64,000 bases of DNA from contig JAGXKI010000008.1 in the NCBI GenBank assembly GCA_018335295.1, forward strand, positions 635 to 64,634, written 5' to 3'. Positions 21,273 through 45,561 of this stretch are shown here, in pieces. Each line of letters opens with the position of its first letter. Positions within the stretch are counted from its first letter, which is position 1. The stretch comes from a bacterium (GTDB taxonomy: Bacteria > Acidobacteriota > Aminicenantia > Aminicenantales > Aminicenantaceae). The notes under the pieces are model-generated. The model had not been told where the DNA came from. It made no database searches and saw only the letters and a list, made by a program, of their open reading frames with translations. The position numbers were made by a program, and so were the translations under genes.

Positions 21273-21323
21273 TTGAGAGCTATTTATAGCACAACCGCCT
21301 TTTATCGTAAAGGAGGGGAATGA

Positions 21324-21383
21324 GTTCGAAAATAGCTACTAATGAATCATATTCTTTTTATGGATGGGTCCTGTCACGGGATG
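21324..21383. repeat. Intergenic repeat family copy A (GTTCGAAAATAGCTACTAATGAATCATATTCTTTTTATGGATGGGTCCTGTCACGGGATG)
   Basis: About 93% identical to 32871-32930. Confidence 0.7.
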
Positions 21384-21393
21384 TATTTGATTA

Positions 21394-21545
21394 TGCGAAA
21401 AAGGCGAGACGGGCGAGAAAAGTGATCCTTGTTCCTTGCGTCGGTTTTGTTAATCGCGTTGCTTGCGTGTTTAGCGTTCCTTGAGTTGATTGCGTTTATT
21501 GCGTTGTTTGGGTTGAGAGAAAGCGAGAAATGCGAGAAAAAATGA
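21394..21545. repeat. GCGAGAAA-containing repeat (copy of 3501-3531) followed by 6-7 tandem degenerate TTGCGT/GCGTT units and further GCGAGAAA motifs
   Basis: Read directly; low-complexity, non-coding. Confidence 0.55.
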
Positions 21546-21627
21546 GATAAAAGAATATCCACAAGCTGGACTTAGTCCTTCAATTCAGACAACCATGCAA
21601 AATCGACCAGATGAGCTTAAACTGAAA

Positions 21628-23208
21628 TTAACTGTTCAGGATTTTTTCGGCCTCTTCCTTGTCCACTTCTGTGATGTAAGGGATTCCGCTTATATCGGCA
21701 GCCTCTTTGGTGAGGGATGCTAAATCATCTCGAGAGATATAAGAAAGATTGAATTTTCGGTTTCCGGCCATCAGCTGACGGACTCCCTGCTGAAGTCTAT
21801 GGTAATAGCTGTAAAGACCCAATGCGCCGGTGGGAATGTCCGTGAATCTATCTTTGTACATCTGTTTGATTTCAGGAGCCGTGACAAAGATCTCTTCAGC
21901 ACTGTCACCGAATCGTTCCACATAAACCGGGATCTGTCCCTCATTGATTCTTTTCCCGATGGTTTTTCCTACCATGGTGGCGGCCACGGGTCCCCGGGCC
22001 ATACTCACCAATTTGAAATAGGGCGCTCCCAAGGCCAAGGCTTTGTAAATCTGATCTTCAAGAGTGATTCCCCCAGCAACAGCCACGTCGGGGATGTACT
22101 CTCCCTTATCATCGAGCTTTTTAAGGTATTGGTAGAGAAGAGACCAGATTTCCACACTGGGGATTCCCCATTCATTCATCATCCGCCAGGGGCTCATTCC
22201 TGTTCCTCCTCCGGCTCCGTCGACCGTAAGAAGGTCCAGCTTGGCTTTAGAGGCAAATTTGACAGCTCGAGCCAGGTCGGCCGGACGAAAAGCTCCTGTT
22301 TTGAGGAAGATATATTTGGCTCCGGCTTTCCTGAGTTCTTCCGCTCTTTTCATGAAGCTTTCTTCATCCACCATTCCCAGGCGGGAATGTCTTTCAAATT
22401 CTTTGAAGCTGCCTTTTTCGAATGATTTGATGACATTGGGGTCTTCCGGATTAGGGAGAACAATGTAGCCTCTTTTCTTTAATTTTTGGGCTTTTTCAAG
22501 GTCTTTGATTTTGACTTCGCCCCCGATATCCTTGGCTCCCTGTCCCCACTTCATTTCTACAGTATCCACCCCTAATTTGTCCATTACGTATTCCTGAACT
22601 TTCAATCGAGTGTCTTCTACGTTGGCCTGAACGGCCACTGTGCCGTATCCGTCCTGCTGCCAGTCTTTGAATAATCGAACCCGTCTTTCCATATCCGGGG
22701 AGCGGATAACTCTTCCGTTTTTTATTTCTGAATCCGGATCCATCGCGCACACATTTTCTCCAACCGAAAGAATGGTCCCTGATATAGCCGCTCCAATGGC
22801 CAAACCATCCCAGTTTTGTTTAGCCACATTGGTGGAACCCATGGCTCCAATGATAAAAGGAATTTTCAGCTTGAGCCCTTTATCGTGACCGATGGCTGTT
22901 TCGATGCTCACTTTGGGGAATATCGCCTTGTCGCTGTCGGCTTCCACACCATAAGCTCCTACGGCCGTACCCATAATGCTGAAGTGAGAAAGATCCACAG
23001 GATATTCTTTTTCTGAGGCGGACGTGATAATCCCGAAAGGTTGGGGGTAGAGGACTTCCGCACCTCGGTAAGCTGATTTTCCGATCTCACACATCCCGAT
23101 GCAGCCGTCCACACAAGTGGTGCACATACCGCTAAACGGACTGATAGAGCCTTCGGTCCTGTTTTTGGTTAATGTGGCCGCGCTTCGATTGAGTTTTGTA
23201 TAAGCCAT
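21628..23208 (-). CDS. Glutamate synthase FMN-binding domain protein (GltB domain-2 like, PF01645-type) with N-terminal Cys cluster; no amidotransferase domain
   Basis: TVDGAGGGTGMSP (cf. GltS HDGGTGASP), CTTCVDGCIGMC N-terminal cluster. Confidence 0.7.
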   Translation of the reverse strand: MAYTKLNRSAATLTKNRTEGSISPFSGMCTTCVDGCIGMCEIGKSAYRGAEVLYPQPFGIITSASEKEYPVDLSHFSIMGTAVGAYGVEADSDKAIFPKVSIETAIGHDKGLKLKIPFIIGAMGSTNVAKQNWDGLAIGAAISGTILSVGENVCAMDPDSEIKNGRVIRSPDMERRVRLFKDWQQDGYGTVAVQANVEDTRLKVQEYVMDKLGVDTVEMKWGQGAKDIGGEVKIKDLEKAQKLKKRGYIVLPNPEDPNVIKSFEKGSFKEFERHSRLGMVDEESFMKRAEELRKAGAKYIFLKTGAFRPADLARAVKFASKAKLDLLTVDGAGGGTGMSPWRMMNEWGIPSVEIWSLLYQYLKKLDDKGEYIPDVAVAGGITLEDQIYKALALGAPYFKLVSMARGPVAATMVGKTIGKRINEGQIPVYVERFGDSAEEIFVTAPEIKQMYKDRFTDIPTGALGLYSYYHRLQQGVRQLMAGNRKFNLSYISRDDLASLTKEAADISGIPYITEVDKEEAEKILNS

Positions 23209-23270
23209 TATAACTACCTCCTTATTTCCTCATTTATTTATAAACGAATAGGATAAGGCTAAGATATTCA

Positions 23271-23993
23271 TTATTTATGACCAGCCTTTTCCTTAGTCTC
23301 CTTTTCCGGGCCTTCCTTGACACATGTGCCGCAGCGGCCGGCATCATACATCCAGCACTGGAGTTCCTCATAGTAATCGAGACAGGTGGGATCCATTTGT
23401 AAACAGGCATTGCAAACCGTTGTGTCTGGATCGGGACCGTGACATCTCAATTGGCAGGCCGGACAGATGTACATGCAACCTCCGCACAGCCGGCATTCTT
23501 CGGAGCGCATATCAAAGGGGGTAGAAATCCTTCGTTTGTATCCTCTGTTTTGGAAGCCGATGGCCTTTCCCCCCATTTGTTCTCTGCACATCCGCACACA
23601 AAGCCCGCAGAGAACACATTCCTCATTTCGGACTTTAAACCGGCACTGCTTCACTCCGAATTTGGAGGCCAAATCCTGGATGGTTTTGGAATTGGGTGCT
23701 ATAGCCAGCATCAGTTCGATCATCATCCGCCGGGTCCGGATGACTCTTTGGGTGTCTGTATGAACCACCAGTCCTTTATGTACAGGGTAAGTGCAGGAGG
23801 AAACCAGTTTGGTTTTGGGAGTTTCTCCGATTTCCACAAGGCAGAGACGGCATCCTCCATACACACTCAGCCCTTCGTTGTAGCAGAGAGTGGGGATTTC
23901 GATGCCGTAAAATTTGGCTGTGTCCAAGATAGACCAGCCTTCTTCGGCTCTGACCTCTAAACCGTTCATTATTATATTGATCATTTTGACCAT
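23271..23993 (-). CDS. Ferredoxin-type subunit resembling NuoG/HydA N-terminal region (2Fe-2S plus two 4Fe-4S), lacking any catalytic domain
   Basis: CRLCLVEIG...SSC 2Fe-2S pattern; CVLCGLCVRMC and CRLCGGCMYICPAC clusters. Confidence 0.7.
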   Translation of the reverse strand: MVKMINIIMNGLEVRAEEGWSILDTAKFYGIEIPTLCYNEGLSVYGGCRLCLVEIGETPKTKLVSSCTYPVHKGLVVHTDTQRVIRTRRMMIELMLAIAPNSKTIQDLASKFGVKQCRFKVRNEECVLCGLCVRMCREQMGGKAIGFQNRGYKRRISTPFDMRSEECRLCGGCMYICPACQLRCHGPDPDTTVCNACLQMDPTCLDYYEELQCWMYDAGRCGTCVKEGPEKETKEKAGHK

Positions 23994-26900
23994 CCTAAAG
24001 CTTCTTTCCCGTCTTCTGTTTCCAGTTCACATCTCAAACATCTTCGAGCTTCTTTAATAGCTGTCTTTTCGTCGAATCCTAATAACACTTCTTTATAATT
24101 CTTTTGTCGGTCTTTCACAGACAGCTTAGGCATTTCTGGACGTTCGGCTTCCTCTATTTCCTTTTCAGTAAGTTCCACCGGTTCTACATACATAGAAGGA
24201 CGGGTGAGCTTGTGTTTTATAGAAAGGGATTCTCCCTTTAGGTATTTTTGAATGGATTCGGCGGCTTTTTTCCCTGAAGCCAAAGCTTCCACCACAGTGT
24301 TTGGGCCTGTGACCACATCTCCTCCTGCAAAAACTCCTTTTTGACCGGTGAGATAAGTTCTTTCATCAGCCACAATCGTGTTCCATTTGGTGATATTGAG
24401 GGAATCGCTTTCGGAAAGGAATGAAATATCAGGTCTTTCTCCAATGGCGGGAATAAGGGTGTCCAGTTCAACAGTAAATTCAGACCCTTCAATGGGGATG
24501 GGTCGTCTTCTTCCGCTGGAATCCATTTCTCCTAATCTCATCCGCACACATTGAACTCCTTTAATTTTTCCGTTTTCACTGATAACTTTTACTGGAGAAA
24601 CGAGAAATTGAATGTCGATTCCTTCTTCTATCGCAAAGTCTACCTCTTCTTCAAAGGCAGGCATTTCTTTCCGTGTTCTTCTATAGAGAACGGTTACTTT
24701 TTGACAATATTTATTTCTAATGGCCACCCGGGCTGCATCAATGGCAGCATTTCCGCCACCAATAATACCTGCCCTTTCTCCCAGATCGATGTCTTCTCCT
24801 AAGTTCGTAGCTTTAAGCAAATCCATAGCTTGGACAACTCCCTTGGATTGTTCTCCAGGAATGTTGAGTTTCATGGATTTATGAGCTCCGGTTGCCAGGA
24901 ACACGGCCTGGTATCCTTGATGAAAAAGGTCTTGGATAGAGAAATCTTTGCCTAAACGAGTGTTGGTTTTAAACTCGATTCCGCAGTTTTTGATGTATTC
25001 AAGATCGAATTCAAGAAAGGGTTTAGGCAGTCTGTGATCAGGAATTCCTATGGACAACATTCCTCCCAAAACAGGCAAGGCTTCAAAGAGGGTCACTGGA
25101 TATCCCTTTAGGTTCAGAGAGTACGCAGCAGCCAGGCCTGCGGGTCCAGATCCGATGACAGCCACTTTCTGTGTTTTGGAGGGTTCCCTATTTGGGGTGG
25201 AGCCTTTATATTCTTTTTCTCTGGCCCAATCTGTCACAAATCTTTTTAGGCCCCGAATCGCAATGGGTTTGCTTATTTCTCCGGCCCGACACACTTCTTC
25301 ACATGGATGATGACAAACTCGTCCACACACAGAGGGGAGGGGATTGTCTTTTCTGATTATATCCATAGCTTCCTGGAATTTTCCTTGGGCGATGAGGGCG
25401 ATATAGACAGGAGCTTCTTGGTCGACAGGGCAAATATATTGGCAGGGGGATGAAACTAGCTCTGTACATACCAAAGCCGGACATTGTTTTTTTTGAATGT
25501 GGGATTCGTATTCATCCCTGAAATATTTAATTGTAGAAAGGACTGGGTTCGCCGCCGTTTGACCTAACCCACATAAAGAAGCATCTTTAACTGCTTGAGC
25601 CAGTTCTTCCAAAAGATCAATGTCCTCTCTTTTTCCTTTTCCCAGGGAAATATCATTCACGATTTCCCACATATGTTGAGTTCCTTCCCGGCAGGAAAGA
25701 CATTTGCCGCAGGATTCATCTCGGAGAAAATTCAGAAAGTATTTGGAGACATCCACCATGCAGGTGCTTTCATCCATAACAATCATTCCCCCTGAACCCA
25801 TTATAGATCCGACTTCGGCTAAGCTTTCATAGTCAATAGGAAGGTCCAGTTTCTCTTTGGGAATACATCCTCCAGAAGGGCCTCCGGTTTGAACGGCCTT
25901 GAATTGTTTTCCTTCAGGAATTCCTCCCCCAATATCGAAGATGATTTCTTTGAGGGTAATCCCCATTGGCACTTCTACTAAACCGGTATTGTTGATTTTT
26001 CCCACTAAAGAAAAGATTTTAGTACCTTTACTTCCATTGGTCCCGATTTGGGAAAACCAATCCGCTCCGTTTTTGATAATGATGGGTATATTGGCCCAAG
26101 TTTCCACATTGTTGATATTGGTGGGCTTTTTCCATAAGCCTTTAACTGCAGGAAAAGGAGGACGTTGGCGGGGTTCTCCCACTTTTCCTTCTATAGAAGC
26201 AATCAAGGCTGTTTCTTCACCGCAGACAAAAGCTCCGGCTCCTTTAGCTATGTGAAGGTTAAAATTGAATCCAGTACCCAGTATGTTTTTACCCAGCAAT
26301 CCCATATTTTTGGCTTGAGTGATTGCTTTGGAAATGTGTTTGACCGCCAGCGGGTATTCATCTCTCACGTAGATGTATCCTTCTTCGGCTCCGATGGCAT
26401 AGGCACCCAGGAGCATACCTTCCAGAACTCGATGAGGATTTCCTTCCAGTAAACTACGGTCCATGTAAGCCCCTGGATCTCCTTCGTCGGCGTTGCAGAT
26501 GATGTATTTGGGATTTCCTTTGGCTTTGCGGGCGAATTCCCATTTTTTTCCGGTCGGGAAACCTGCGCCGCCTCTTCCTCTGATGCCGGATTCCTTGACC
26601 CTGTCAATGACTTCTTGAGGTTTCATTTCCTCTAGAACTTGAATCAAAGAACTGTACCCGCCTATAGACAGATAATCTTGAATGTCTTCTGGGTCGATCA
26701 ACGTATTATCACCCAGCACAATGCGTTTTTGTTTTTTATAGAAAGGAATATTTTTTTCTTTATAGATTGTTTGACCAGTTTGAGGGTCTGTAAACAGAAG
26801 ATGTTTAATAGGTTTATCTTTGAGAACTGTTTGATTGATGATCTCAGTGGCATCTTCAGGTTGGACGTGTTGATAGAATAAATCTTGAGGTTGAAGAATG

Positions 26901-27145
26901 ATATTGGGTTCTGCTTCACAAAAACCATGACAGCCAGTGATTTTAAGCTCGACTTGATCTTTTAACTTCTTTTTTTCAATTTCCTGTTTTAAAGCTTCCA
27001 CCACTTTAAGGGATCCTCTGGCTTGTCCGCAGGTTCCCGCCGAGACAGTGAGAATTTGGCGTTTATCAGAGTTCCTTTTTTGGACTTCTTTTTCAATGGT
27101 TTGTTTTAATTCTTGTGTTGATTTAATTCTCTTGAGGTTGTTCAT
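23981..27145 (-). CDS. Fusion protein: thioredoxin-like 2Fe-2S domain + NuoF/HydB-type NADH:FMN 4Fe-4S module + GltD/NfnB-type 2x[4Fe-4S] FAD/NAD(P)H oxidoreductase
   Basis: GRGGAGFPTGKKWEF, ESCGKCLSCREGT, SLCGLGQ (NuoF); CGRVCHHPCEEVC and VAVIGSGPAGLAAAY (GltD). Confidence 0.8.
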   Translation of the reverse strand: MNNLKRIKSTQELKQTIEKEVQKRNSDKRQILTVSAGTCGQARGSLKVVEALKQEIEKKKLKDQVELKITGCHGFCEAEPNIILQPQDLFYQHVQPEDATEIINQTVLKDKPIKHLLFTDPQTGQTIYKEKNIPFYKKQKRIVLGDNTLIDPEDIQDYLSIGGYSSLIQVLEEMKPQEVIDRVKESGIRGRGGAGFPTGKKWEFARKAKGNPKYIICNADEGDPGAYMDRSLLEGNPHRVLEGMLLGAYAIGAEEGYIYVRDEYPLAVKHISKAITQAKNMGLLGKNILGTGFNFNLHIAKGAGAFVCGEETALIASIEGKVGEPRQRPPFPAVKGLWKKPTNINNVETWANIPIIIKNGADWFSQIGTNGSKGTKIFSLVGKINNTGLVEVPMGITLKEIIFDIGGGIPEGKQFKAVQTGGPSGGCIPKEKLDLPIDYESLAEVGSIMGSGGMIVMDESTCMVDVSKYFLNFLRDESCGKCLSCREGTQHMWEIVNDISLGKGKREDIDLLEELAQAVKDASLCGLGQTAANPVLSTIKYFRDEYESHIQKKQCPALVCTELVSSPCQYICPVDQEAPVYIALIAQGKFQEAMDIIRKDNPLPSVCGRVCHHPCEEVCRAGEISKPIAIRGLKRFVTDWAREKEYKGSTPNREPSKTQKVAVIGSGPAGLAAAYSLNLKGYPVTLFEALPVLGGMLSIGIPDHRLPKPFLEFDLEYIKNCGIEFKTNTRLGKDFSIQDLFHQGYQAVFLATGAHKSMKLNIPGEQSKGVVQAMDLLKATNLGEDIDLGERAGIIGGGNAAIDAARVAIRNKYCQKVTVLYRRTRKEMPAFEEEVDFAIEEGIDIQFLVSPVKVISENGKIKGVQCVRMRLGEMDSSGRRRPIPIEGSEFTVELDTLIPAIGERPDISFLSESDSLNITKWNTIVADERTYLTGQKGVFAGGDVVTGPNTVVEALASGKKAAESIQKYLKGESLSIKHKLTRPSMYVEPVELTEKEIEEAERPEMPKLSVKDRQKNYKEVLLGFDEKTAIKEARRCLRCELETEDGKEALGWSK

Positions 27146-27617
27146 TTTCTTTCTCTTTTTTATGATAGGTCTTTAAGATCGAACCGACCTTGCGGATGTT
27201 GGTGTGGGAATAATAATTTCCGTCAACCACCACAACGGGACCTATGGCACAGCATCCCAAACAAGCCACGGTTTCCAAGCTGAATTGTTTGTCTTCTGTA
27301 GTTTCTCCAGATTCGATTCCCAGTTTCCTTTCAAACTCTTCCAGGATTTTGGGGCCTCCGCGGACATGGCAGGCTGTGCCCATACATACAGTGACCATAT
27401 GTTCTCCTTTAGGCTCAAGACTGAACGACCTGTAAAAAGTGGCCACACTGATAATGTCAATGAGGGGGATCCCTAAAGTTTGGGAAACGAATCTCAAGGC
27501 TTCTGCAGGGAGATAATTGTATTCACCTTGAATGTCTTGAAGGATGGAAATGAGGGCTTGTTTTTTTGAATCATGTTTTTCTATAAAAGATTTGATCTTT
27601 TGAGTTTCGGCATTCAC
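27123..27617 (-). CDS. NuoE/HoxE/HndA-type thioredoxin-like [2Fe-2S] subunit
   Basis: CMGTAC...ACLGCC cluster motif. Confidence 0.8.
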   Translation of the reverse strand: MNAETQKIKSFIEKHDSKKQALISILQDIQGEYNYLPAEALRFVSQTLGIPLIDIISVATFYRSFSLEPKGEHMVTVCMGTACHVRGGPKILEEFERKLGIESGETTEDKQFSLETVACLGCCAIGPVVVVDGNYYSHTNIRKVGSILKTYHKKEKENEQPQEN

Positions 27618-27837: not shown

Positions 27838-29244
27838 TTATAGAAAAGGCAGGTATTTTTGAATTTCATAGTCGCTGACCTGTTTATCAAATTCTGTGGT
27901 CACATTCTTGGTGTATTCTTCAATTTCCCATTTTTTATTGGAGATGAATTTGTTGAAAACATGCTCTCCCAATGTCTCTTTAACCAAAGCGCTGTTTTTA
28001 GTGAAGGAGACAGCTTCCTTCAATCCTTGGGGAAGAACTTTGATTTTTAATTTTTTTTGTCTTGATTTGCTCATTTCATAGATGTTTTCTTCTACAGGGT
28101 CTTCCAGTACATATTTGTTTTGTATCCCTTTCATCCCGGCCATCAGCATGATAGAAAAAGCCAAATAGAGATTGCAGGAAGGATCGGCAGCTCTGAGTTC
28201 GATTCGGGTGGCCTGTTCCTTTCCTGGCTGATACTCTGGAACCCGGATGTAAGCCGAACGGTTCCTTTGTCCCCAGGCCACATAAACGGGGGCTTCATAA
28301 CCTTCAATCAACCGTTTGTAAGAGTTGACCCATTGACAGAGCAGAGAAGAAATTTCTCCCGAGTGAGCCATCAGTCCCGCTATGTACTGACGGGCCTTTT
28401 GCGAAAGTTGGTAGGTGTTTTTTGGGTCAAAGAAAATATTTTTTCCATTCTTCCATAGAGATTGATGGACATGCATGCCGCTTCCATTTTGGGCGTTGAG
28501 GGGTTTAGGCATAAAAGTGGCATAAAGATTGTGCATCCGGGCCACTTTTTTGACCAGATACCGGAAGATCATGGAACTATCAGCCATATCTAAGGCAGAA
28601 AGATATTTGAGGTCAATTTCGTGCTGCCCGTGAGCCACCTCGTGATGGTCATATTCGGATTTTATCCCCATTTTTTTGAGTAAAAGTTGGACCTCTTTTC
28701 GAATCTCTCCCTGTCGGCCTCCAAAAAAGTAACCTCCTTTATCTAAAGCCACAGCCTCTTTATCGTTGGGAAAGAGAAAAAATTCTAGTTCGGGGCCAAT
28801 TTTGAAGTCATCGATCCCCCATTCTTTCTTTCCCCTTTCCAATGCTTTTTTCAAGACAAGCCGGGAATCTCCTTCATAAGGCTCCCCTCCTGGTTTGAAA
28901 ATATCTCCAAACATGATGGCTTCTCTCCATATGGTGTTTTCGTCAAATCCATGATAAGACCAGGGGAGAACTCGAAAGGTAGAAGCATCGGGTTTGATGA
29001 TCAAGTCGCTTTCTTCGATACGAACAAAGCCTTCTACCGAAGAACCATCAAATCCCTTGCCTTCTTGGAATGTTTTTCCCAGTTCATGATTGGGAATAGT
29101 GAAGTCCATAGGTCTCCCTAGAATATCGGGAAATATGATGCGGACAAATTCGATTTTGTGGGAAGGATCTAATACCGTGTCCAGTACCTCATCGGAGTTT
29201 TCATAACCAAAAAACTTTATATCGGAATGAAAGCCACTTTCCAT
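27838..29244 (-). CDS. glnA: Glutamine synthetase, type I
   Basis: 468 aa, GS beta-grasp and catalytic domain pattern (EVAHGQHEID, NGSGMHVHQS). Confidence 0.85.
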   Translation of the reverse strand: MESGFHSDIKFFGYENSDEVLDTVLDPSHKIEFVRIIFPDILGRPMDFTIPNHELGKTFQEGKGFDGSSVEGFVRIEESDLIIKPDASTFRVLPWSYHGFDENTIWREAIMFGDIFKPGGEPYEGDSRLVLKKALERGKKEWGIDDFKIGPELEFFLFPNDKEAVALDKGGYFFGGRQGEIRKEVQLLLKKMGIKSEYDHHEVAHGQHEIDLKYLSALDMADSSMIFRYLVKKVARMHNLYATFMPKPLNAQNGSGMHVHQSLWKNGKNIFFDPKNTYQLSQKARQYIAGLMAHSGEISSLLCQWVNSYKRLIEGYEAPVYVAWGQRNRSAYIRVPEYQPGKEQATRIELRAADPSCNLYLAFSIMLMAGMKGIQNKYVLEDPVEENIYEMSKSRQKKLKIKVLPQGLKEAVSFTKNSALVKETLGEHVFNKFISNKKWEIEEYTKNVTTEFDKQVSDYEIQKYLPFL

Positions 29245-33028: not shown

Positions 33029-34420
33029 TCAGGAGGAGAGGATATCTCGGGTGTCGATATCGAGTCTTTTGATCATTTCGTTCAGAGTAGTGGGCTTGAC
33101 TCCTAGAAATCGGGAAGCCTTTTTTTGAACTCCGTTGGCCTTTTTTAAGGCATCAATGATCGCTTTCTTTTGGTAGTGCTTCATTTGTTCTTTGAGGGTC
33201 ATGTGAGCCGAGGCGGAGGTGGTATTTTCCTTTTCTTGGGGCGGGGCTAAGAAAGAGGGAGGAAGATTTTTTCGAGTAATGATTTTGGTCTTGGTTAAAA
33301 CCACGGCTCTTTCGATAAGATTTTCTAATTCTCTGATGTTTCCAGGCCAATCATAGTTTTCCAAAATTTCCATCACATCTTGGGATACTTCTTGGATTTC
33401 CTTGTTGTTTTCTTTGCTGTAGATGTTCAGAAAATGCTTAACTAAAAGAGGAATATCTTCTTTTCTATCCCTTAAAGGAGGAAGTTCAATTTTAATGACA
33501 TTCAACCGGTAGAACAGATCTTCCCGGAATTTATTCTGGTTGATGAGCTCTTCTAAATCAGCATTTGTGGCTGCGATAACCCGAACATCTACTTTTATGG
33601 TACTGGTTCCTCCGAGCCTCATAAATTCTCGGTCTTGCATGACTCTTAGAAGTTTGGCTTGAGTTTCCATGTTGAGAGTGGATATTTCGTCAAAGAAAAT
33701 AGTCCCCTTATCTGCGGCCTCAAACAATCCCTCTTTTTGCTGTACCGCCCCAGTGAAGGCTCCTTTGACGTGACCGAAAAGATGGCTTTCCAGTAAATCA
33801 GGGGGGAGGGAACCGCTGTTGACAACAATAAATGGATAATCCGAGCGGTTGCTGTTTTGGTGAACTGCTCTGGCGACCAGTTCCTTTCCAGTTCCACTTT
33901 CTCCTTGGATAAGAATGGTGCTTCGAGAGGAGGAGGTGGCTTTTATGGTTTCGAAAACATTGTTCATTAATTTGCTTTTGCCGATTATACTGTTAAAACT
34001 AAATTTCTTCTGGAGCTGACTTTTTAACCGGAGATTTTCTTCTTGAAGTTTCTTATGTTCAAGGGCTCTTTTAACCGTCATCAGCAGGTCTTCGTGTTTA
34101 AAAGGTTTCTGGATGTAATCATAAGCTCCTGTTTTCATAGCGGAAATAGCGGATTCCACCGAAGCATAGGCGGTAATGATGATGATCACGGCCGTAGGAT
34201 CCCTTTTTTTGATCTTTTTAAGGACTTGAAGGCCGTCCATTCCAGGCATGAGCAGGTCCAAAAGGATGAGGTCAAACGGTTGGGAGGAATGTTTTTTTAA
34301 AGCTTCCTCTCCCGTCGAGGATATTTCAAGTTCATATCCTTCAGAGGAGAGAAGATCTCCTAAAATTTCATGGATGATGGGTTCATCATCCACGATGTGA
34401 ATGATTCCTTTTTTACTCAT
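33029..34420 (-). CDS. NtrC-family sigma-54-dependent response regulator (REC + AAA+ + HTH); PilR-like by context
   Basis: DLILLDLLMPGMDG receiver, GESGTGKE, GAFTGA, C-terminal HTH. Confidence 0.85.
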   Translation of the reverse strand: MSKKGIIHIVDDEPIIHEILGDLLSSEGYELEISSTGEEALKKHSSQPFDLILLDLLMPGMDGLQVLKKIKKRDPTAVIIIITAYASVESAISAMKTGAYDYIQKPFKHEDLLMTVKRALEHKKLQEENLRLKSQLQKKFSFNSIIGKSKLMNNVFETIKATSSSRSTILIQGESGTGKELVARAVHQNSNRSDYPFIVVNSGSLPPDLLESHLFGHVKGAFTGAVQQKEGLFEAADKGTIFFDEISTLNMETQAKLLRVMQDREFMRLGGTSTIKVDVRVIAATNADLEELINQNKFREDLFYRLNVIKIELPPLRDRKEDIPLLVKHFLNIYSKENNKEIQEVSQDVMEILENYDWPGNIRELENLIERAVVLTKTKIITRKNLPPSFLAPPQEKENTTSASAHMTLKEQMKHYQKKAIIDALKKANGVQKKASRFLGVKPTTLNEMIKRLDIDTRDILSS

Positions 34421-34430
34421 TTTTTTTCTC

Positions 34431-37265
34431 TCATGAAGATTGGGTCATTTTCCTTTTATCCAAGTCCATGGGAATATAAATAGTAAAAAGGGAGCCTTTT
34501 CCTTCTTCGCTTTCCACACTCAAATGACCTTCATGTTCTTTGATGATGGCATAACTAATAGAAAGTCCTAGGCCTGTTCCTTTTCCTATGCCCTTGGTGG
34601 TAAAGAAAGGATCAAAGATATTGGGCAGATGTTGTTCTTTGATTCCTGTCCCCGTATCTTTGATCGTGACGATGGCTTGATTATCCGTGTTGGATAATTG
34701 GATTTTAAGGGTTCCTCCGTTAGGCATGGCGTCGATGGCATTAAGGATGATATTGATGAAGACTTGCTGGAGTCTTTCCCCTTGAGCCCATATGGAAGGA
34801 ATAGAAGGAAGTTCCAGTTCTAAGTTGATCTTCATGTTCTTCAGTTTATAATCAATCAGGGATAAGATCTCTTCAATATTTTCTTTGAGCTTCACTTGGT
34901 AAAAAGAGGATTCGGAAGGATTCCGGGCGAAATTAAGGAGATTTTTAACAATTTTTCCTACTCTCTCTGTTTGGTTTTCGATCTTGTCCAAGATTTGTGA
35001 ATGAGAATCATTGGTGAGTTTTTTCTGTAAAAGCTGTACGTAACTGGAGATACCCGTAAGAGGGGTGTTGATTTCATGAGCCACTCCCGCTGAAAGGAGT
35101 CCCACAGAGGCCAGCTTTTCTGAAGTGAGAAGCTGCTGTTGGAGAGAGAACTTTTCCGTGATATCTTCAAAGACGATGACTGTGCCATAAGGGTTCATCT
35201 GGTTATCCAACAACGGAGTTTTGGCAATATCAAAGATTTTTTTCTCTCCAGAAGGCATTTCCAGAGTCACTTCACTGAGCAAACGAAATCCTTTCTGGGT
35301 GTCTGGAGGAAAAAGGGCCGCATAATTCTCTTCTCCCAACACTTGAAGCAGTTTTTTATCCATAACCTCTTCTTTTTTATGAGAAAAAGTTTCTTCCATG
35401 ACCCGATTCCAGCCCATGATTTTTCCCGATTGGTCCAGTACAGCCACTCCCACAGTCAGACTTTCAATGATGTTTTCACTGTAGTCTTTCAACATTTCCA
35501 GTTCTCGAGCTCGACTCTGAGCCTGGTTATACAGATAAGCGTTTTCTAAGGCCAGTCCCACCGAGGAAGCGATGGTTTTGAGCAACTCCCAATCTTCACT
35601 GTTCAGGTAAGTGTTATCTGTCTTTTTCCCCATAGCCAAGCAGCCTACCATCTTATCTTCAACCTTTAATGCCAATAAATGATGAAATCCTCTGGAGGAG
35701 AGGTTTTTCAATTTATCTTTCAAGGTCCTTTTTTCAGAAAGGGAATCCGCGGAAATGAAATTCTCTTTTTTTAAATGGTGGTAAATTTGGGGATCAAAAG
35801 TGATTTGTTTCTCTGGAGAGGAAGAATTTCCCATGGATTTCAAGATGTAAAAGGAATCCTTGTTGTTTTCATCTGGGAGAAGAAGAGCGATGTATTGGAG
35901 CGATAGAGCATTGGAAATGAGATTGAGAAGGGATTGAGAAAGTTTTTGAAGGTTTCTCTCTTTATTGAGCTGTTCGCTGATGGAAAGAAGGGTCTTCCGG
36001 TAATGATAGCTTTTTTTGTATATGACCCTATCCAGAAGAGATTGGAAAAGATTTTTTAAAGGTGAAAAAAGAGTGGCTCCCAAAATAATGGCGAGAATGC
36101 CCAGGATGAGAGCATTGAGTCTATTTTCAGAGAAGATTTTTGTTTGTGAGCTGACGATAAAATAGACTATAGCGATCACCACATAGGAAGAGATGAGAGT
36201 GACGGCTTTTTTGAGTATAATTTCGAGATCAAAAAATTTATACCTGGAAATGGAATAAGCGAAAGTTAAAGGGATGAGAGCTTGGAGGATGACTGTAAAT
36301 TCAGCCCCCTTGGAGGGGACATTTCCTAAAAGAAAAGGAAGGATATAGATAAGAGTGAATGGGAGGATGGCAAAACAGAGGCCGTAGACGATGCCTTTCA
36401 GCTGCTTTTTAATGATAGGATTAGGAGATTTAAAGATTCCCATGACGAGAAGTCCCACTGTGAACAGGGAATAGAGGCCAAAATGAACCAGATCCAGTGT
36501 TTCAGAAGTTTTGTGGAGGTTTAATACCGTAAATTCATTAAGAGAGACAGTATGGAGGACCCCTTTGAAGGAAAGAAGAAGGAAGGCAGGGATGTATAAA
36601 AGGATAGAAGAGCGGAGTATGCTTTTTAAGATTTTTTTTCTCTTGGGAAAAGTGTTGAAAAAATGGAGCATCAAAGGTGGAAAAAACAGAAAAGCTATTT
36701 TATCCAGCCAGAAAAACAAAGAGTCCCAAACATCCAGTTGGCCGGTTGGAGAAAATGTATAAAAAGCAAAGAAAGTCACACAAAGAAGAAAAAAGAACCC
36801 ATAAGGAAGGAAAAAAGGTTTATCCGAGCTGAAGAAAACGATGAGCCCGATGGCCAGGGTGGTGATTCCCACTAAAGAAAGGAAAAAGTAAATAAGGTTA
36901 GTTCCCTTTTTCCGGAGATAAAATGAGGGGTGAGCCAGATTTCCTTCAAGGTTTCCTTCCCGAGCGATCTCGTAGGTGACCTTTTGGTTCAGTCCATCCG
37001 CTTCCCATAATTTTTTGGAGAGGTCAATTTTGTTCTTTATGGGAGTGTCGTTGATTGAATAAAGAATATCCCCTTTTTTGATTCCATGTAAATAAGCTGG
37101 ACTCCCTTCTTCTACTTTTACAGCCGTGAGGCCTTCCGGAGTTTTTTCCCAAATGACTCCGTCGGTGGGTTCTTTCCAGGTGGCTTTTCTGTATATATTC
37201 AATGCCCCCAGAGCGAACAACAGAAGTAAAGGCGGTATTACCAGGAGATAGATTTTTTTATTCAT
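34431..37265 (-). CDS. Sensor histidine kinase: TM + periplasmic PDZ + 7 TM helices + GAF + PAS + HisKA + HATPase_c (ORF extends to 37334; MNKK at 37265 with AAGGAA RBS is the likelier start)
   Basis: PDZ-like GSPAYLHGIKKGDIL; AHEINTPL H-box; GTGLGLS G-box. Confidence 0.8.
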   Translation of the reverse strand: MNKKIYLLVIPPLLLLFALGALNIYRKATWKEPTDGVIWEKTPEGLTAVKVEEGSPAYLHGIKKGDILYSINDTPIKNKIDLSKKLWEADGLNQKVTYEIAREGNLEGNLAHPSFYLRKKGTNLIYFFLSLVGITTLAIGLIVFFSSDKPFFLPYGFFFLLCVTFFAFYTFSPTGQLDVWDSLFFWLDKIAFLFFPPLMLHFFNTFPKRKKILKSILRSSILLYIPAFLLLSFKGVLHTVSLNEFTVLNLHKTSETLDLVHFGLYSLFTVGLLVMGIFKSPNPIIKKQLKGIVYGLCFAILPFTLIYILPFLLGNVPSKGAEFTVILQALIPLTFAYSISRYKFFDLEIILKKAVTLISSYVVIAIVYFIVSSQTKIFSENRLNALILGILAIILGATLFSPLKNLFQSLLDRVIYKKSYHYRKTLLSISEQLNKERNLQKLSQSLLNLISNALSLQYIALLLPDENNKDSFYILKSMGNSSSPEKQITFDPQIYHHLKKENFISADSLSEKRTLKDKLKNLSSRGFHHLLALKVEDKMVGCLAMGKKTDNTYLNSEDWELLKTIASSVGLALENAYLYNQAQSRARELEMLKDYSENIIESLTVGVAVLDQSGKIMGWNRVMEETFSHKKEEVMDKKLLQVLGEENYAALFPPDTQKGFRLLSEVTLEMPSGEKKIFDIAKTPLLDNQMNPYGTVIVFEDITEKFSLQQQLLTSEKLASVGLLSAGVAHEINTPLTGISSYVQLLQKKLTNDSHSQILDKIENQTERVGKIVKNLLNFARNPSESSFYQVKLKENIEEILSLIDYKLKNMKINLELELPSIPSIWAQGERLQQVFINIILNAIDAMPNGGTLKIQLSNTDNQAIVTIKDTGTGIKEQHLPNIFDPFFTTKGIGKGTGLGLSISYAIIKEHEGHLSVESEEGKGSLFTIYIPMDLDKRKMTQSS

Positions 37266-37350
37266 GTTCCTTGGTCGTGAACCGGAAAGTCCCAATTTTG
37301 ACTCAAAATCCAAAAAATTGAATCGCTCTGACAAAAAATATATGGGTCGT

Positions 37351-37740: not shown

Positions 37741-37776
37741 GAGGAGGTCTTTTGTACTATTTTATCCAATTTGAAG

Positions 37777-38982
37777 ATGCCATACTATCGCTGTCGGTTA
37801 GCTGGGGAAAATGGACTGATTACATCCCAGTCTTTTTTTGCTCCCTCTTCTCAAGATTGTCAAAAATATTTTGAAGAGGAAGGGTATTGTGTTCTTTCTG
37901 TAAAAAAGGATTGGAAGAAAATAAAGCTAGGAACTTTTCCTTTTGAAAAGAAAATCAAAGATAAAGATTTTATTGCCTTCAATCAAGAATTCATAGCCCT
38001 TATAAAGGCCGGATATCCAATCCTGAAAAGCATCGGGATTATCATCAATCGAGTCGAGAATGTTCATCTCAAAGAGATTTTGATGAATGTAGAGAAAGAG
38101 ATTCGAGCGGGAAAGTCCCTTTCCGAAGCTTTTTCTCCGTATGAAAAGATGTTCTCCAAAGTTTATACCGCTTCTCTTATCGCCGGAGAACGGAGCGGAA
38201 ATCTTCCCAGCACTCTGAGCAGGTTCATCGGGTATTCCCGAAGAATTTCCCAGACTAAATCCAGGATTAAATCGGCCCTCACTTATCCCACCCTTCTTCT
38301 TATTTTTTCTTTATTTCTCATGGGGATACTGATTAACTTTGTTATTCCCCGCTTTTCTGGATTTTACGCTGATTTTGAAGCCCAGCTCCCCCTTATCACT
38401 CGGATACTTATGTCCTTTTCCTTGACAGTGAGAAATCACCTTGGGTATATACTGGGGGGTTTCCTTGTACTAATTTTGCTTTATTTTCAGTTAAAAAAGA
38501 GGAGTCATATGCGGGTTTATCTAGATCAGATGAAATTGAAAATTCCCTATGGAAAGGGCCTTTGGTTGGAGTCTTCGGTTTCCATTTTTTCAAGGACATT
38601 GGCCATCCTGTTGGGAGGAGGCATCTCTTTGCTCCAAGCAGTGGGAGTGGCTTCACAAGCGGTGCCCAATCAATATTTATCCAGGAGGATGGAAAATCTT
38701 CCCCCGGATATAAAAAACGGGGATAGTTTGTCGGCTTCCCTTCGAAAGATCGGTCTTTTTCCCCCTTTGGGATTGGATATGATTCGTATAGGGGAAACAT
38801 CAGCCAACCTTGAGGGGATGCTTGAAGAGGTAGCTGATATCTATGATGAACGGATACGGACCAAAGTGGAAACTTTTGTTTCTCTTATCGAACCTGTTAT
38901 CATAATACTGATGGGAATAGTGGTAGCGTTCATGCTGCTATCCGTGTATTTACCCATATTTAACCTGATAAGAGTGACCTGA
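37777..38982 (+). CDS. pilC: Type IV pilus platform protein PilC / GspF family (ORF track starts at TTG 37771; ATG 37777 preferred)
   Basis: Two T2SSF domains, 3 TM helices, AGYPILKSI / ERSGNL motifs. Confidence 0.85.
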   Translation: MPYYRCRLAGENGLITSQSFFAPSSQDCQKYFEEEGYCVLSVKKDWKKIKLGTFPFEKKIKDKDFIAFNQEFIALIKAGYPILKSIGIIINRVENVHLKEILMNVEKEIRAGKSLSEAFSPYEKMFSKVYTASLIAGERSGNLPSTLSRFIGYSRRISQTKSRIKSALTYPTLLLIFSLFLMGILINFVIPRFSGFYADFEAQLPLITRILMSFSLTVRNHLGYILGGFLVLILLYFQLKKRSHMRVYLDQMKLKIPYGKGLWLESSVSIFSRTLAILLGGGISLLQAVGVASQAVPNQYLSRRMENLPPDIKNGDSLSASLRKIGLFPPLGLDMIRIGETSANLEGMLEEVADIYDERIRTKVETFVSLIEPVIIILMGIVVAFMLLSVYLPIFNLIRVT

Positions 38983-40613
38983 TGAAAGACAAACTCAAAG
39001 AAAAGGAACAAAAGAAACAAAAAAACAGTCTGTCCGAAGAGGAAGAAACCCAACGTCTAGCCCGGAGGTATCAGGTTTCCACCATTGACCTTTCCTCATG
39101 TGCTTTGGATAGGGATTTGATTCAATCCTTTCCTGTTGATTTTCTTTACCGGTCTTGCTTCATTCCTGTTGAAGAAAATGAAGAGGGAATTAAAATCGCC
39201 ATTGCTGACCCCTCCGATATTGAAACCATCGATTCGATTGAATCTTTTAAGGGAAAGAAGGTTGAGGTGTGTGCGGCACCTCGTCAGGCCATTTATGAAG
39301 CTCTGCGGAAAAGTGAGACAGCGATACAGCTTCTCAGGGATGCCACCGAAGGGTATGTCATGAAGGTGGTGGATAAAGAAGGCACTGAAGAGGGAGAAGA
39401 TGCGATTTCGGTAGAAAAACTAGCTGATCAAGACGGCTCTATTATCAAACTGGTGAATTCCATCATTTTCACCGCTGTTCAAAAAAGAGCCAGCGATGTG
39501 CATATTGAATCCCGGGAAGAAGGGGTGATCATCAAATATCGGATTGACGGGGTTTTGAGTGAGGCTATGGAGCCGATCGATAAAAGATTCCATTCGGCCA
39601 TCATATCTCGGATCAAGGTGATGTCAGATCTGGATATAGCTGAGCGGAGAGTCCCTCAGGATGGACGGTGTCGTTTGAAAATCAAAGACAAGACCATAGA
39701 TTTTCGAATTTCCATCATGCCCGGGATCTATGGTGAAGATGCGGTGATTCGGGTCCTGGATAAAGAAATGATTACTGAGGCTATATCCGAATTGAGGTTG
39801 GATTTGTTGGGACTTTCTGAGGAACTTCTTTATAAATTCCGGAAGCATATCTTCCAACCCTATGGAATGGTGCTGGTCACCGGTCCCACAGGAAGCGGGA
39901 AAACCACTTCTCTTTACGCAGCTTTGACTGAAATCAAGTCTCCGGAAGATAAAATCATCACCATAGAGGATCCTGTGGAGTACCAAATCGACGGTATCAC
40001 CCAGGTCCCGGTGAATGAGAAAAAAGGGCTTACTTTTGCTCGAGGATTGAGGTCAATTTTACGTCATGATCCGGATAAAATCATGGTGGGAGAAATCAGG
40101 GATCCCGAAACAGCTCAGATCGCCATTCAGTCAGCTTTGACCGGCCATCTTGTGTTCACCACTGTCCATGCCAACAATGTCTTTGATGTCATCGGACGAT
40201 TCCTCCATATGAATGTAGATCCCTACAGTTTCATTTCATCTTTGAACGGCATCATGGCCCAAAGACTGGTCCGGGTCCTGTGTCCTTACTGCAAGAAATC
40301 AGTGAAGTATGAACCTTCTCAATTGAAAGAATCCGGGCTGAATCCTGAGACATTCCAGAATCAGGATTTTTATGAGCCTCAAGGATGTCCTCAGTGCCGG
40401 TTCACGGGTTTCCGGGGAAGAACCGCCATTGCGGAGCTGCTGGAGCTTTCCGATGAGATCAGAGAGATGATCGTGGATAAGAAACCCCTCTCTGAAGTGA
40501 AAAAAAGAGCCAAGGCTGAAGGAATGGTCTTTTTAAGAGAAGAAGGGATAAAAAAAGTGTCCCAAGGGCTTACCAGTCTTCGGGAATTGAATAAGGTGAC
40601 TTTTGTGGAGTAG
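38982..40613 (+). CDS. pilB: Type IV pilus assembly ATPase PilB / GspE family with N-terminal GspE_N domain and tetracysteine zinc site
   Basis: VTGPTGSGKTTS Walker A, Asp box, His box, CPYC...CPQC. Confidence 0.9.
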   Translation: MKDKLKEKEQKKQKNSLSEEEETQRLARRYQVSTIDLSSCALDRDLIQSFPVDFLYRSCFIPVEENEEGIKIAIADPSDIETIDSIESFKGKKVEVCAAPRQAIYEALRKSETAIQLLRDATEGYVMKVVDKEGTEEGEDAISVEKLADQDGSIIKLVNSIIFTAVQKRASDVHIESREEGVIIKYRIDGVLSEAMEPIDKRFHSAIISRIKVMSDLDIAERRVPQDGRCRLKIKDKTIDFRISIMPGIYGEDAVIRVLDKEMITEAISELRLDLLGLSEELLYKFRKHIFQPYGMVLVTGPTGSGKTTSLYAALTEIKSPEDKIITIEDPVEYQIDGITQVPVNEKKGLTFARGLRSILRHDPDKIMVGEIRDPETAQIAIQSALTGHLVFTTVHANNVFDVIGRFLHMNVDPYSFISSLNGIMAQRLVRVLCPYCKKSVKYEPSQLKESGLNPETFQNQDFYEPQGCPQCRFTGFRGRTAIAELLELSDEIREMIVDKKPLSEVKKRAKAEGMVFLREEGIKKVSQGLTSLRELNKVTFVE

Positions 40614-41547
40614 GAGGAAGAATTCTTTGATAAACAAAATAAAAAATTTCTTTATCCAACCCTCCTCTCTTCATTCCGCTTTCCAGTTTTCTTCTCAGTA
40701 CGGAGGAGGAATTCTTATATCTCCAAGAAATAGAGCTGTCAGGGAATGTTTTTTTGTCTCTCTAGGAAATGGTGAAATCATACGGCCTTCCTTTCATAAA
40801 AAAAACATCCTCAACCCCTCTCTTTTAGAAAAAAAGATGAAACCAGAAATCCAAAAGCTTCAGCTCGACGACCCAAGGGTGATTTTTCTTCTTCCGGATT
40901 TATCCCAAAAGGCTCTTGTTTTCACTTTGGATTCCTTTCCCCGGTCTCCTCAGGATAGAGAGCAAATATTGTGGTACCGAATCAAAAAACAAATCCCCCT
41001 GCTGCCTTCCGATGTTCGACTCTCCTATGATTGGTTTTTTTCTGGAGAAAAAATTAGAGTCCTTACTTCGGTAGCCCGAAAATTGGTTATAGAGGAATAT
41101 GAAAATTTTTTCCGAAAATTTCAATTGAGAGTGGGAATCGTGGGAGTTGTTTCCCTGAGTTTGCTCAGTCTTCTCAAAAAAGAAAAGAATTTTATACTTG
41201 CCAATATTGAACAGGACTCCTTCAGTTTGTTATCCACGGTCGATGGAAATCTGGTTCTCTATCGCCAAAAATCCCTTCCCTCTGTTCCTCTCCAGTCTCT
41301 CAATAAAAGTTTGGATGTTCTTGTCCAGGAGATAAAGAATACAGCCAACTATCTCGAAGATAGAGAAAAGAAAAAAATCCCAAACGTATGGATACGTTTG
41401 GGATGGGTGGAAAAGGAAGAAGAGGTGTTTCATCGGTTAAAGGAAGAGCTTCCTTTTTCGGTCAAGAGAATTGAAAATTCGATTCCCTATTCCATGAAGG
41501 GGAGAGAAAAAAGAGTCCTCTCTCCTTCCATAGGACAGTTCGGATGA
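40603..41547 (+). CDS. pilM: PilM-like (actin-like) type IV pilus assembly protein
   Basis: Size, position before a PilN-like gene, weak PilM-like segments; assignment mainly contextual. Confidence 0.5.
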   Translation: MWSRRKNSLINKIKNFFIQPSSLHSAFQFSSQYGGGILISPRNRAVRECFFVSLGNGEIIRPSFHKKNILNPSLLEKKMKPEIQKLQLDDPRVIFLLPDLSQKALVFTLDSFPRSPQDREQILWYRIKKQIPLLPSDVRLSYDWFFSGEKIRVLTSVARKLVIEEYENFFRKFQLRVGIVGVVSLSLLSLLKKEKNFILANIEQDSFSLLSTVDGNLVLYRQKSLPSVPLQSLNKSLDVLVQEIKNTANYLEDREKKKIPNVWIRLGWVEKEEEVFHRLKEELPFSVKRIENSIPYSMKGREKRVLSPSIGQFG

Positions 41548-45495: not shown

Positions 45496-45561
45496 AAAAA
45501 AATTCTTGTTGGTAACCCCCGATTGACTATTGCGGGTGATTGGGCTAAAATTCACCAGACT

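Follow-up and report, generated by a model that had tools for sequence, protein, structure and literature searches.

Positions 21628 to 27617 on the minus strand of the analysed stretch (64,000 nt from an Aminicenantes bacterium, in the following called the window) hold a cassette of four co-directional open reading frames (ORFs). The cassette is read here, with moderate confidence, as encoding one soluble Fe-S flavoprotein complex of the BfuABC type, in which a stand-alone FMN subunit of the glutamate synthase (GltS) type forms the module for the third substrate and likely interconverts 2-oxoglutarate plus NH3 and glutamate. The proteins contain the domains, the cofactor ligands and the signature residues of the Bfu family, the four genes are strictly co-conserved, and the B subunit occurs in two exchangeable forms. 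As an entity the cassette is widespread, highly conserved and well supported; its function is predicted.

Layout of the cassette

All features of the cassette given below lie on the minus strand. ORF1 (27123-27617; 164 aa, GTG start) encodes a BfuC/NuoE/HydC-like subunit with a thioredoxin-like [2Fe-2S] cluster, C1. ORF2 (23981-27145; 1054 aa) is a fusion of a BfuB/HydB-like NADH-FMN subunit with an NfnL/GltD-like NADPH-FAD module. ORF3 (23271-23993; 240 aa) is a minimal BfuA with one [2Fe-2S] cluster (A1), two [4Fe-4S] clusters (A2 and A4) and a Cys-rich C-terminal region, and ORF4 (21628-23208; 526 aa) encodes the GltS-type FMN 'synthase' subunit, which is the sole candidate for a catalytic subunit. 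ORF1 and ORF2 overlap by 23 nt and ORF2 and ORF3 by 13 nt, while ORF3 and ORF4 are separated by 62 nt.

A preliminary description of this DNA had placed four ORFs with these overlaps on the minus strand, and the ORF coordinates bear it out. The motifs GRGGAGFPTG, SLCGLGQ, VAVIGSGPAG and DGAGGGTGMSP that it listed were all found in the translations, and the proposed domain order, for which a check with hidden Markov models had been suggested, was confirmed by Pfam and NCBIfam. It had further stated that no catalytic subunit of a hydrogenase or formate dehydrogenase is present. This holds, as H-cluster, molybdopterin, glutamine amidotransferase (GATase) and GXGXG domains were all absent from the four ORFs in Pfam and NCBIfam searches (for the GltB domains also in tblastn searches). 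A concealed hydrogenase, formate dehydrogenase or molybdopterin catalytic domain within the ORFs was ruled out by the lack of any such Pfam or NCBIfam match. The idea of a flavin and Fe-S complex with the GltB-like protein as the only catalytic candidate was supported by the analysis.

Conservation and distribution

With each GTDB species represented by one genome, a scan yielded 587 relatives of ORF4, the best 80 of which were examined; these 80 were 69-85% identical to ORF4. In a protein search an identical 526-aa protein was found on record from an NCBI contig, and the nearest relatives (82-91% identity) came from metagenome-assembled genomes (MAGs) of Candidatus Aminicenantes. The cassette is highly abundant, with at least 8000 clusters of relatives found in each of two protein searches, one with the window copy and one with a Firmicutes copy. 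The best 80 loci are spread over more than 15 bacterial phyla and three archaeal lineages. Bacterial carriers among them were Aminicenantes, Zixibacteria, Planctomycetota/Phycisphaerae, Bacteroidota, Ignavibacteria, KSB1, Latescibacterota, Acetothermia, Aerophobetes, Coatesbacteria, Holophagales, Firmicutes (Dethiobacter) and Syntrophorhabdus; the archaeal carriers were Methanoperedens, Methanophagales and Thermoplasmata.

Gene neighbourhoods were counted by tblastn with the window proteins in the 63 loci having at least 4.6 kb of upstream sequence. Co-conservation of the four genes had been set beforehand as the test on which the proposal of a complex could fail. The proposal passed this test: the order NuoE-like subunit, NuoF-like subunit, small Fe-S subunit and FMN protein recurred almost everywhere, with the B subunit present in 62, the C subunit in 60 and the A subunit in all 63 loci. 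The gene of the FMN protein was always located directly downstream of the A subunit gene, also where the NfnL module was missing. ORF4 was the most conserved member of the cassette; its alignment columns averaged 77% identity across phyla, and copies from different phyla were about 70% identical.

The one clear exception was locus L016 (L016:7435-9569), which had no B and C genes despite ample flanking sequence and carried unrelated genes upstream; a 5'-truncated match to the A subunit abuts its GltS-like gene. This could be a rearrangement or an assembly artefact. In two loci of unclassified MAGs (L042:7497-7889 and L080:7509-7892) the A subunit gene and the GltS-like gene are separated by an additional ORF of about 130 aa. 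Neither locus gave a match to NuoE; the B gene is preceded there by a short ORF that is similar to the 2Fe-2S domain at the N-terminus of the B subunit.

The C and A subunits

ORF1 matched 2Fe-2S_thioredx (PF01257) across its full length (Pfam, E = 2e-50), and its nearest NCBIfam families were HoxE/NuoE. It has the NuoE-type thioredoxin-like [2Fe-2S] domain (IPR002023) that characterises BfuC. The ligands of the C1 cluster (C78, C83, C119 and C123) were kept in 43-44 of 44 homologues from the related loci. Outside the Aminicenantes the NuoE-like subunit was often longer, at about 280-300 aa (L057:4458-5357, L059:4487-5335 and similar loci), owing to a zinc-ribbon-like C-terminal extension with four CxxC-type pairs that the 164-aa copy of the window does not have.

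ORF3 resembles the N-terminus of NuoG/HoxU, with Fer2_4 and a 4Fe-4S dicluster domain (Fer4_7) in Pfam, and so contains the [2Fe-2S] and the 4Fe-4S ferredoxin-type domains (A1/A2) of a BfuA. All 12 cluster Cys (A1, A2 and A4) were 100% conserved. The nearest solved chain was WorA (9mqx_A, 247 aa; E = 8e-36). In WorABCSL, a structurally characterised bifurcating tungsten aldehyde oxidoreductase, A4 and a Cys-rich C-terminal tail link the core to a separate catalytic module (PMC12318220). The tail of ORF3 contains eight further Cys (C180, C184, C194, C197, C204, C213, C221 and C224), each with a conservation of 94-100% among 64 homologues. A single Zn finger, as in WorA, would require only half as many. 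An additional Fe-S or metal site may be present at this presumed docking tail (residues 180-224).

The B subunit and its two exit modules

Pfam resolved ORF2 into 2Fe-2S_thioredx (residues 28-105), Complex1_51K (183-354), SLBB, NADH_4Fe-4S (465-549), Fer4_20 (555-645) and Pyr_redox_2 (660-958). The NuoF core (residues 153-550; 25496-26689; TIGR01959 nuoF_fam, E = 3e-157) comprises the NADH/FMN site, the SLBB domain and the [4Fe-4S] cluster B1, the ligands of which (C479, C482, C485 and C525) were invariant. All three elements of a BfuB, namely the NuoF FMN/NADH, SLBB and NuoF 4Fe-4S domains, are present. Residues 33-564 aligned with HydB of the bifurcating NiFe-hydrogenase (7t2r_B, E = 5e-228). 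The next-ranked solved chains were HydB, NfnB and WorB of other bifurcating enzymes, with NuoF of Complex I far lower.

A His/Cys hinge forms the 'B2' site (H549, C555 and C560, together with C462 and S500) and marks the fusion junction (25466-25501; alignment to 7t2r_B). In a residue-by-residue alignment C438, C476, H525, C531 and C536 of 7t2r_B corresponded to C462, S500, H549, C555 and C560 of ORF2. Across 39-40 long and 23-24 short B subunits these positions did not vary, except that position 500 was either S or T. The B2 His and Cys residues occur in virtually all BfuB sequences and are absent from non-bifurcating homologues (PMC9304861); ORF2 possesses this site. The point of fusion is the B2 hinge itself, as C560, the last B2 ligand, was aligned with the first Cys of the cluster motif of E. 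coli GltD.

The NfnL/GltD-like module that follows (residues 566-1040; 24026-25450; PF14691 and PF07992) contains the Cys clusters of Fer4_20, a FAD fold (VAVIGSGPAG), an NADPH-type fold (GGGNAAID...LYRRTRKEMPA) and a C-terminal CxxC. C568, C572, C611, C615, C619, C1036 and C1039 were invariant. The nearest solved chain of this part was NfnA (9bov_A, E = 2e-129). The module was 36% identical to E. coli GltD over 431 aa and retained the YRR motif, which is typical of NADPH-dependent members. The C-terminal B3/B4 ferredoxin domain of the Bfu family (IPR017896) was not found in ORF2, where the alignment with HydB ends at residue 564 and Fer4_20/GltD follows; it was found in the sister short form of the subunit, for example in L002, L033 and L047. 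In NfnABC of Thermococcus sibiricus, B3/B4 is the low-potential exit to ferredoxin, and the N-terminal B5 domain is reported to be dispensable (PMC12018979).

In ORF2 this thioredoxin-like [2Fe-2S] domain B5 extends over residues 28-105 (26831-27064; PF01257, E = 2e-05), and its residues C72 and C76 were invariant among homologues. The first Cys pair was S35/C39 in the window (27145-27040) and in about half of the long forms, while the other copies of the B subunit had Cys35 but no Cys39. Where S35/C39 occurs, the B5 cluster may be changed or missing.

Long B subunits (about 1050 aa, with the GltD/NfnL end) were present in the window and in 38 of the 63 loci; the remaining loci, about 40%, had a short B subunit of about 615 aa with a two-cluster ferredoxin-like end. 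The trio of NuoE, NuoF and GltD that had been taken as a hallmark of bifurcating enzymes was present in its parts, but the GltD fusion is optional, and since about 40% of the cassettes do not have it, GltD is not an obligatory partner of the GltB-like protein. Long and short forms were interleaved on a neighbour-joining tree of the shared core, where the long copy of the window was sister to the short copy of L002, and both forms occurred in Planctomycetota and in Zixibacteria. Because of this interleaving, the C-terminal exit module must have been exchanged repeatedly. With B3/B4 as the ferredoxin exit in T. sibiricus NfnABC, the simplest reading of the two forms is that the second carrier was repeatedly swapped, ferredoxin being the probable partner of the short form and NADP(H) that of the long form. 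In one Aminicenantes locus (L035:444-9581) a long C-B pair (B of 1038 aa, with the GltD module) is followed in tandem by a short C-B pair (B of 616 aa, with the ferredoxin domain), then by two genes for the A subunit and a single one for the GltS-like protein. In such a cell, one catalytic subunit may be supplied by both input variants.

The kinship with bifurcating enzymes that had been suggested for the core was upheld, and its type could be sharpened to HydBC/Bfu on the basis of the B2 signature, combined with a WorA-like minimal BfuA. By these sequence features the input part is a genuine core of the BfuBC type, combined with an A subunit of type 2 (WorA-like).

The FMN subunit

The only Pfam family that matched ORF4 at E <= 0.001 was Glu_synthase (PF01645; E = 3e-16, 59.9 bits against a cut-off of 20.4), so that the FMN TIM-barrel synthase domain of GltS was recognised in ORF4. 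When a widened family profile of ORF4 was compared with the FMN domain of E. coli GltB by hhalign, a probability of 82% over 380 columns was obtained. In this alignment IPFIIGAMGS of ORF4 was paired with MSIGALS of GltB, KWGQGAK with KVAQGAK, DGAGGGTGMSP with GYDGGTGASP, and AGG..EDQIYKALALGA with DGGLKTGVDIIKAAILGA (GG..D..KA.ALGA). The Lys of the QGAK loop (K226) was conserved. An invariant Arg, R246, lies 20 residues past K226, the spacing found for the Arg of IAKLR in E. coli, but the equivalence of these two residues is uncertain, as the hhalign alignment has a 3-residue gap there. The invariant motif EFERHSR of ORF4 had no GltS counterpart in the alignment. The AlphaFold2 model of ORF4 was an FMN TIM barrel with a pLDDT of 66.5, in which the N-terminal 96 residues were unmodelled, and a fold search with this model, which is too weak to tell the substrate, retrieved generic FMN TIM barrels, with alpha-hydroxy-acid oxidases/dehydrogenases ranked first.

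ORF4 has five Cys only, at positions 29, 32, 36, 40 and 154. The first four form the motif C29-x2-C32-x3-C36-x3-C40 (23089-23124), a presumed [4Fe-4S] entry cluster. They were invariant in 19 of 19 sequences, and the motif was retained also in relatives that were 40-52% identical. This is the cluster that had been noted ahead of the FMN domain, and CTTCVDGCIGMC was found at residues 29-40.

On these grounds it is concluded that ORF4 belongs to the GltS synthase-domain superfamily and carries four N-terminal Cys as a cluster that replaces the 3Fe-4S site. The earlier view of the 526-aa protein as essentially only domain 2 of GltB stands in so far as PF01645 matched; the protein itself is a divergent relative of that domain without the 3Fe-4S ligands, and no copy of it. 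That it lacks a GATase domain was borne out by Pfam, which places it apart from a GltS with its PurF-type (Ntn) glutamine amidotransferase and ammonia tunnel.

Two diverged GltS-like paralogues without Bfu genes of their own were observed a few kb from cassettes. One is in Methanoperedens (L033:3015-4604, minus strand; 51% identical), adjoining genes of a CTP-dependent riboflavin kinase and DHBP synthase; the other is in Dethiobacter (L036:2129-3712, plus strand; 60% identical), where it lies between two IclR regulators.

Genomic neighbourhood

Directly upstream of the cassette lies glnA for a type I glutamine synthetase (27838-29244, minus strand; TIGR00653, E = 5e-139). The adjacency of glnA, from which a role in nitrogen assimilation had been suggested, is real in the window but local to some Aminicenantes; glnA was found in 10 of 83 related loci, all of the Aminicenantes type, and was ruled out as a conserved partner on this count. 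A gene of a Glu/Leu/Phe/Val dehydrogenase (ELFV; PF00208/PF02812) lay beside the cassette in 12 loci, mostly in phyla other than Aminicenantes, and gives an independent hint of glutamate. An NtrBC-like pair of a kinase and a sigma-54-dependent regulator was located upstream of the cassette in about 26 loci; in the window a sigma-54-dependent response regulator and a sensor kinase were recognised by Pfam at 33029-37334 (minus strand). These neighbours point moderately to the glutamate/ammonia node, but not to a glutamine-dependent GOGAT. Beside the archaeal copies and the paralogues no GltS parts were found, the neighbours there being riboflavin genes, kinases and the like.

The window also contains, upstream of the cassette, a divergent AsnC/Lrp regulator and an M1 peptidase, and, downstream, housekeeping genes, namely those for an M50 peptidase and trpS, scpAB, ispH and rpsA. 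The 355-nt spacer past the GltS-like gene (21273-21627) includes a run of irregular AACGC/ACGCAA-like repeats, caaacaacgcaataaacgcaatcaactcaaggaacgctaaacacgcaagcaacgcg, and had neither an Rfam match nor a clear terminator. Scans of the cassette region for Rfam families, tRNAs, promoters and terminators gave nothing relevant. Farther away, a set resembling type II secretion or type IV pilus genes (37771-45288; T2SSF, a T2SSE ATPase and three ORFs without Pfam match) ends in a 714-aa secretin with N-terminal TPR repeats and a C-terminal cohesin domain; a tRNA-Met gene follows the secretin gene at 45561-45636.

Proposed function

From these results we infer that the four proteins form a physical complex which acts on a third substrate at ORF4 and may couple its turnover to that of the electron carriers by bifurcation or confurcation. 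NADH would bind at the FMN of the B subunit and reduce it. The coupling centre would consist of this FMN, the [4Fe-4S] cluster B1 and the [2Fe-2S] cluster C1 of the NuoE-like subunit. One branch would lead through A1, A2 and A4, possibly also through the Cys-rich tail, to the N-terminal 4-Cys cluster and on to the FMN of the 526-aa subunit, where a 2-oxo or 2-imino acid would be converted; 2-oxoglutarate and free NH3 would react via 2-iminoglutarate to glutamate, or the reverse reaction would take place. The second branch would leave by the C-terminus of the B subunit, in the short form from the ferredoxin-docking B3/B4 clusters to ferredoxin and in the long form through the two Fe-S clusters and the FAD of the NfnL/GltD-type module to NADP(H). 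Glutamate formation from 2-oxoglutarate by the cassette is predicted from its context, namely the gdh and glnA neighbours and the conserved QGAK loop, and free NH3 is the likely nitrogen source because no glutaminase domain exists. The coupled turnover of NAD(H), ferredoxin and the third substrate is predicted.

The 2-oxoglutarate/glutamate couple has a potential of about -0.13 V. This is far above the mid-potential third substrates of the characterised Bfu enzymes, and a reversible bifurcation from glutamate in the Bfu style is therefore not possible. Two modes would be left: the electrons of NADH and of the second carrier could confurcate into the substrate, or those of NADH could bifurcate, the substrate serving as high-potential acceptor. 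A new form of energy coupling at the glutamate node is put forward only tentatively. In mode (a) electrons of NADH would bifurcate, with 2-iminoglutarate as high-potential and ferredoxin or NADP+ as low-potential acceptor; in mode (b) NADH plus either reduced ferredoxin or NADPH would jointly drive, by confurcation, an ATP-independent, high-affinity assimilation of free ammonia.

Besides the potential of this couple, several results weigh against the proposed function. The similarity of ORF4 to GltS is remote, with hhalign probabilities ranging from 53 to 82%, and the match to PF01645 is confined to residues 279-402. NCBIfam gave no match for ORF4, and comparison of ORF4 and its family profile with solved structures by phmmer and hmmsearch gave no match to GltS. 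The stretch aligned to C..ICHLNNC of E. coli GltB, which provides the [3Fe-4S] ligands, holds no Cys, so that the [3Fe-4S] Cys motif of GltS is missing in ORF4. The glutaminase, central and GXGXG domains were absent from ORF4 and from all loci by tblastn, and the C-terminal GXGXG beta-helix was not matched by Pfam either; as the E. coli GltB domains gave no match in the whole window and the 83 loci even for the FMN domain, the sensitivity of this search was limited. The same holds for a separate GltB amidotransferase gene, for which a search had been recommended and of which none was found by tblastn in the window or the 83 loci; no GATase domain was detected in the Pfam-scanned ORFs within about 18 kb on either side of the cassette. 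A sigma-54 promoter ahead of the first gene, which the NtrC-like neighbours gave reason to look for, matched the strict motif in 2 of 60 loci without enrichment, and a relaxed score (9 of 44 loci against a background of 13%) did not support such a promoter. Finally, all close relatives, including those of the Firmicutes copy, come from MAGs or metagenomes, which is probably why the system is unstudied.

Alternative explanations

The same complex might carry out other chemistry, with the 526-aa subunit acting on another 2-oxo, 2-hydroxy or imino/amino acid or on a small acceptor (e.g. in a reaction of the lactate/pyruvate type), so that the nitrogen-related neighbours would be coincidental or regulatory. 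GltS-family FMN subunits of other function exist, such as that of N-methylglutamate synthase. The top rank of alpha-hydroxy-acid oxidases/dehydrogenases in the fold searches would agree with this, as would the restriction of the Pfam match to the generic FMN-phosphate half of the barrel, the EFERHSR motif without GltS counterpart and the absence of glnA and gdh from most loci. Yet PF01645 was the sole Pfam match and lay above its cut-off, the GltS-specific loops KxxQGAK and DGxGGTGxSP could be aligned, and a glutamate dehydrogenase gene or glnA adjoins the cassette in 22 loci of several phyla. Other chemistry is on balance unlikely, although it has to be taken seriously.

An ordinary, uncoupled NAD(P)H glutamate synthase, in which the GltD-like module feeds the GltB-like protein, a glutaminase is encoded elsewhere and NuoEF is an alternative entry for NADH, was judged improbable. 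The module is related to true GltD at the identity given above and retains the NADPH-type YRR motif, archaeal split GltS with separate domain proteins are known, and with any of these donors the GOGAT reaction releases so much free energy that it can do without coupling. Such an enzyme is hard to reconcile with the roughly 40% of loci that keep the other three partners without a GltD module, with the invariance of the Bfu-specific B2 His/Cys site and of the C1 ligands, and with the position of the module, which occupies the place of the ferredoxin exit of HydB and does not lie beside the FMN subunit. No glutaminase or GXGXG gene was detected in the 83 loci or the 64-kb window either, in scans of limited sensitivity. 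It appears still less probable, indeed quite improbable, that the long form is an Nfn/Stn-like NADH/NADPH (ferredoxin) transhydrogenase and that the FMN protein is independent and merely co-transcribed. BfuC, BfuB and BfuA with an NfnL-like module do make up the parts list of NfnABC/StnABC, but the FMN protein is the most conserved and most constant member and is always found just downstream of A, a linkage that persists in loci without the NfnL module. The minimal A subunit with its conserved Cys-rich tail moreover resembles WorA, whose tail docks a partner module, and the short-form complexes would be left without a third substrate. A BfuABC-type complex with the GltS-type protein as its third-substrate module remains the preferred explanation.

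Comparison with known systems

The cassette was compared with glutamate synthases (NADPH-dependent alpha-beta GltS, Fd-GltS and archaeal split GltS), with which it shares the FMN TIM barrel, the QGAK and GGTGxSP motifs, neighbours of nitrogen metabolism and, in the long form, a GltD-type module. The latter corresponds to the GltD beta-subunit (NADPH, FAD and two [4Fe-4S] clusters) and forms the C-terminal half of ORF2. Unlike GltS, the cassette has no PurF-type glutaminase, central domain, GXGXG domain or 3Fe-4S cluster and possesses an N-terminal CxxCxxxCxxxC motif; electrons would enter by the HydBC-type core, and the GltD module is dispensable in 40% of the loci. As glutaminase, 3Fe-4S and GXGXG were tested and found to be absent, the encoded enzyme is no glutamate synthase in the defined sense.

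NfnABC/StnABC of Sporomusa, Caldicellulosiruptor and Thermococcus sibiricus have in common with the cassette the BfuBC core and an NfnL/GltD-like NADPH-FAD module, and the module of the window was nearest to NfnA (9bov_A and 9n5u_A) and StnC (8oh5_C). In those enzymes the NfnL domain is located on A and the B subunit keeps its ferredoxin domain, whereas in the cassette the A subunit of 240 aa has no FAD domain, the module is on B, and a GltS-like protein is present as fourth subunit. The encoded enzyme is therefore no NfnABC/StnABC. WorABCSL of A. mobile (9MQX; PMC12318220) shares an A subunit of about 240 aa with A1, A2, A4 and a Cys-rich tail, and a separate catalytic module connected via A4. 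It differs in that WorS/WorL contain a tungstopterin, whereas the cassette has a single FMN/Fe-S protein, and in that one Zn finger stands against eight conserved Cys in the tail.

The BfuABC family, which comprises HydABC, NiFe-HydABCSL, NfnABC/StnABC and WorABCSL (PMC9304861), shares with the cassette the C subunit with C1, the HydB-like B subunit with B2 and the A subunit with A1, A2 and A4. The closest solved chains (7t2r_B, 8a6t_B, 9n5u_B and 9mqx_A/B) were all from bifurcating members of this family. In its best reading the cassette largely qualifies, by its sequence, as a previously uncatalogued Bfu-family enzyme. The B subunit of the window, having no ferredoxin-type C-terminal domain, would have fallen outside the retrieval of the 2022 Bfu census, while the short form would have qualified. 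The main text of PMC9304861 does not contain 'glutamate synthase', GltB, GltD or GOGAT, and one supplement file does not contain glutamate or Aminicenantes. Full-text literature searches, which did not cover subscription-only papers, returned no description of the cassette. Seventeen Bfu clades are without an assigned function (PMC9304861).

The Bfu family is at present the least understood class of electron-bifurcating enzymes. Nearly all close relatives of the cassette are from uncultured organisms (Aminicenantes, Zixibacteria, Planctomycetota, KSB1, Latescibacterota, ANME-1 and Methanoperedens). If the complex acts on glutamate, current reconstructions of nitrogen assimilation or amino-acid fermentation in these organisms miss an enzyme that joins the NADH, NADPH and ferredoxin pools, and if the energy coupling is true, energy-limited anaerobes would widely possess an alternative to GS-GOGAT and GDH.

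Relative to the Bfu members known so far, a flavoprotein of the glutamate synthase type would be a new kind of third-substrate module. In the window B3/B4 are replaced by NfnL/GltD, and the repeated trading of the ferredoxin exit domain for an NADPH-FAD module provides a natural experiment within the family. The likely substrate couple has a far more positive potential than the couples used by the characterised members, and, should the energy coupling apply, this would be the first Bfu enzyme with an organic high-potential substrate on a flavoprotein.

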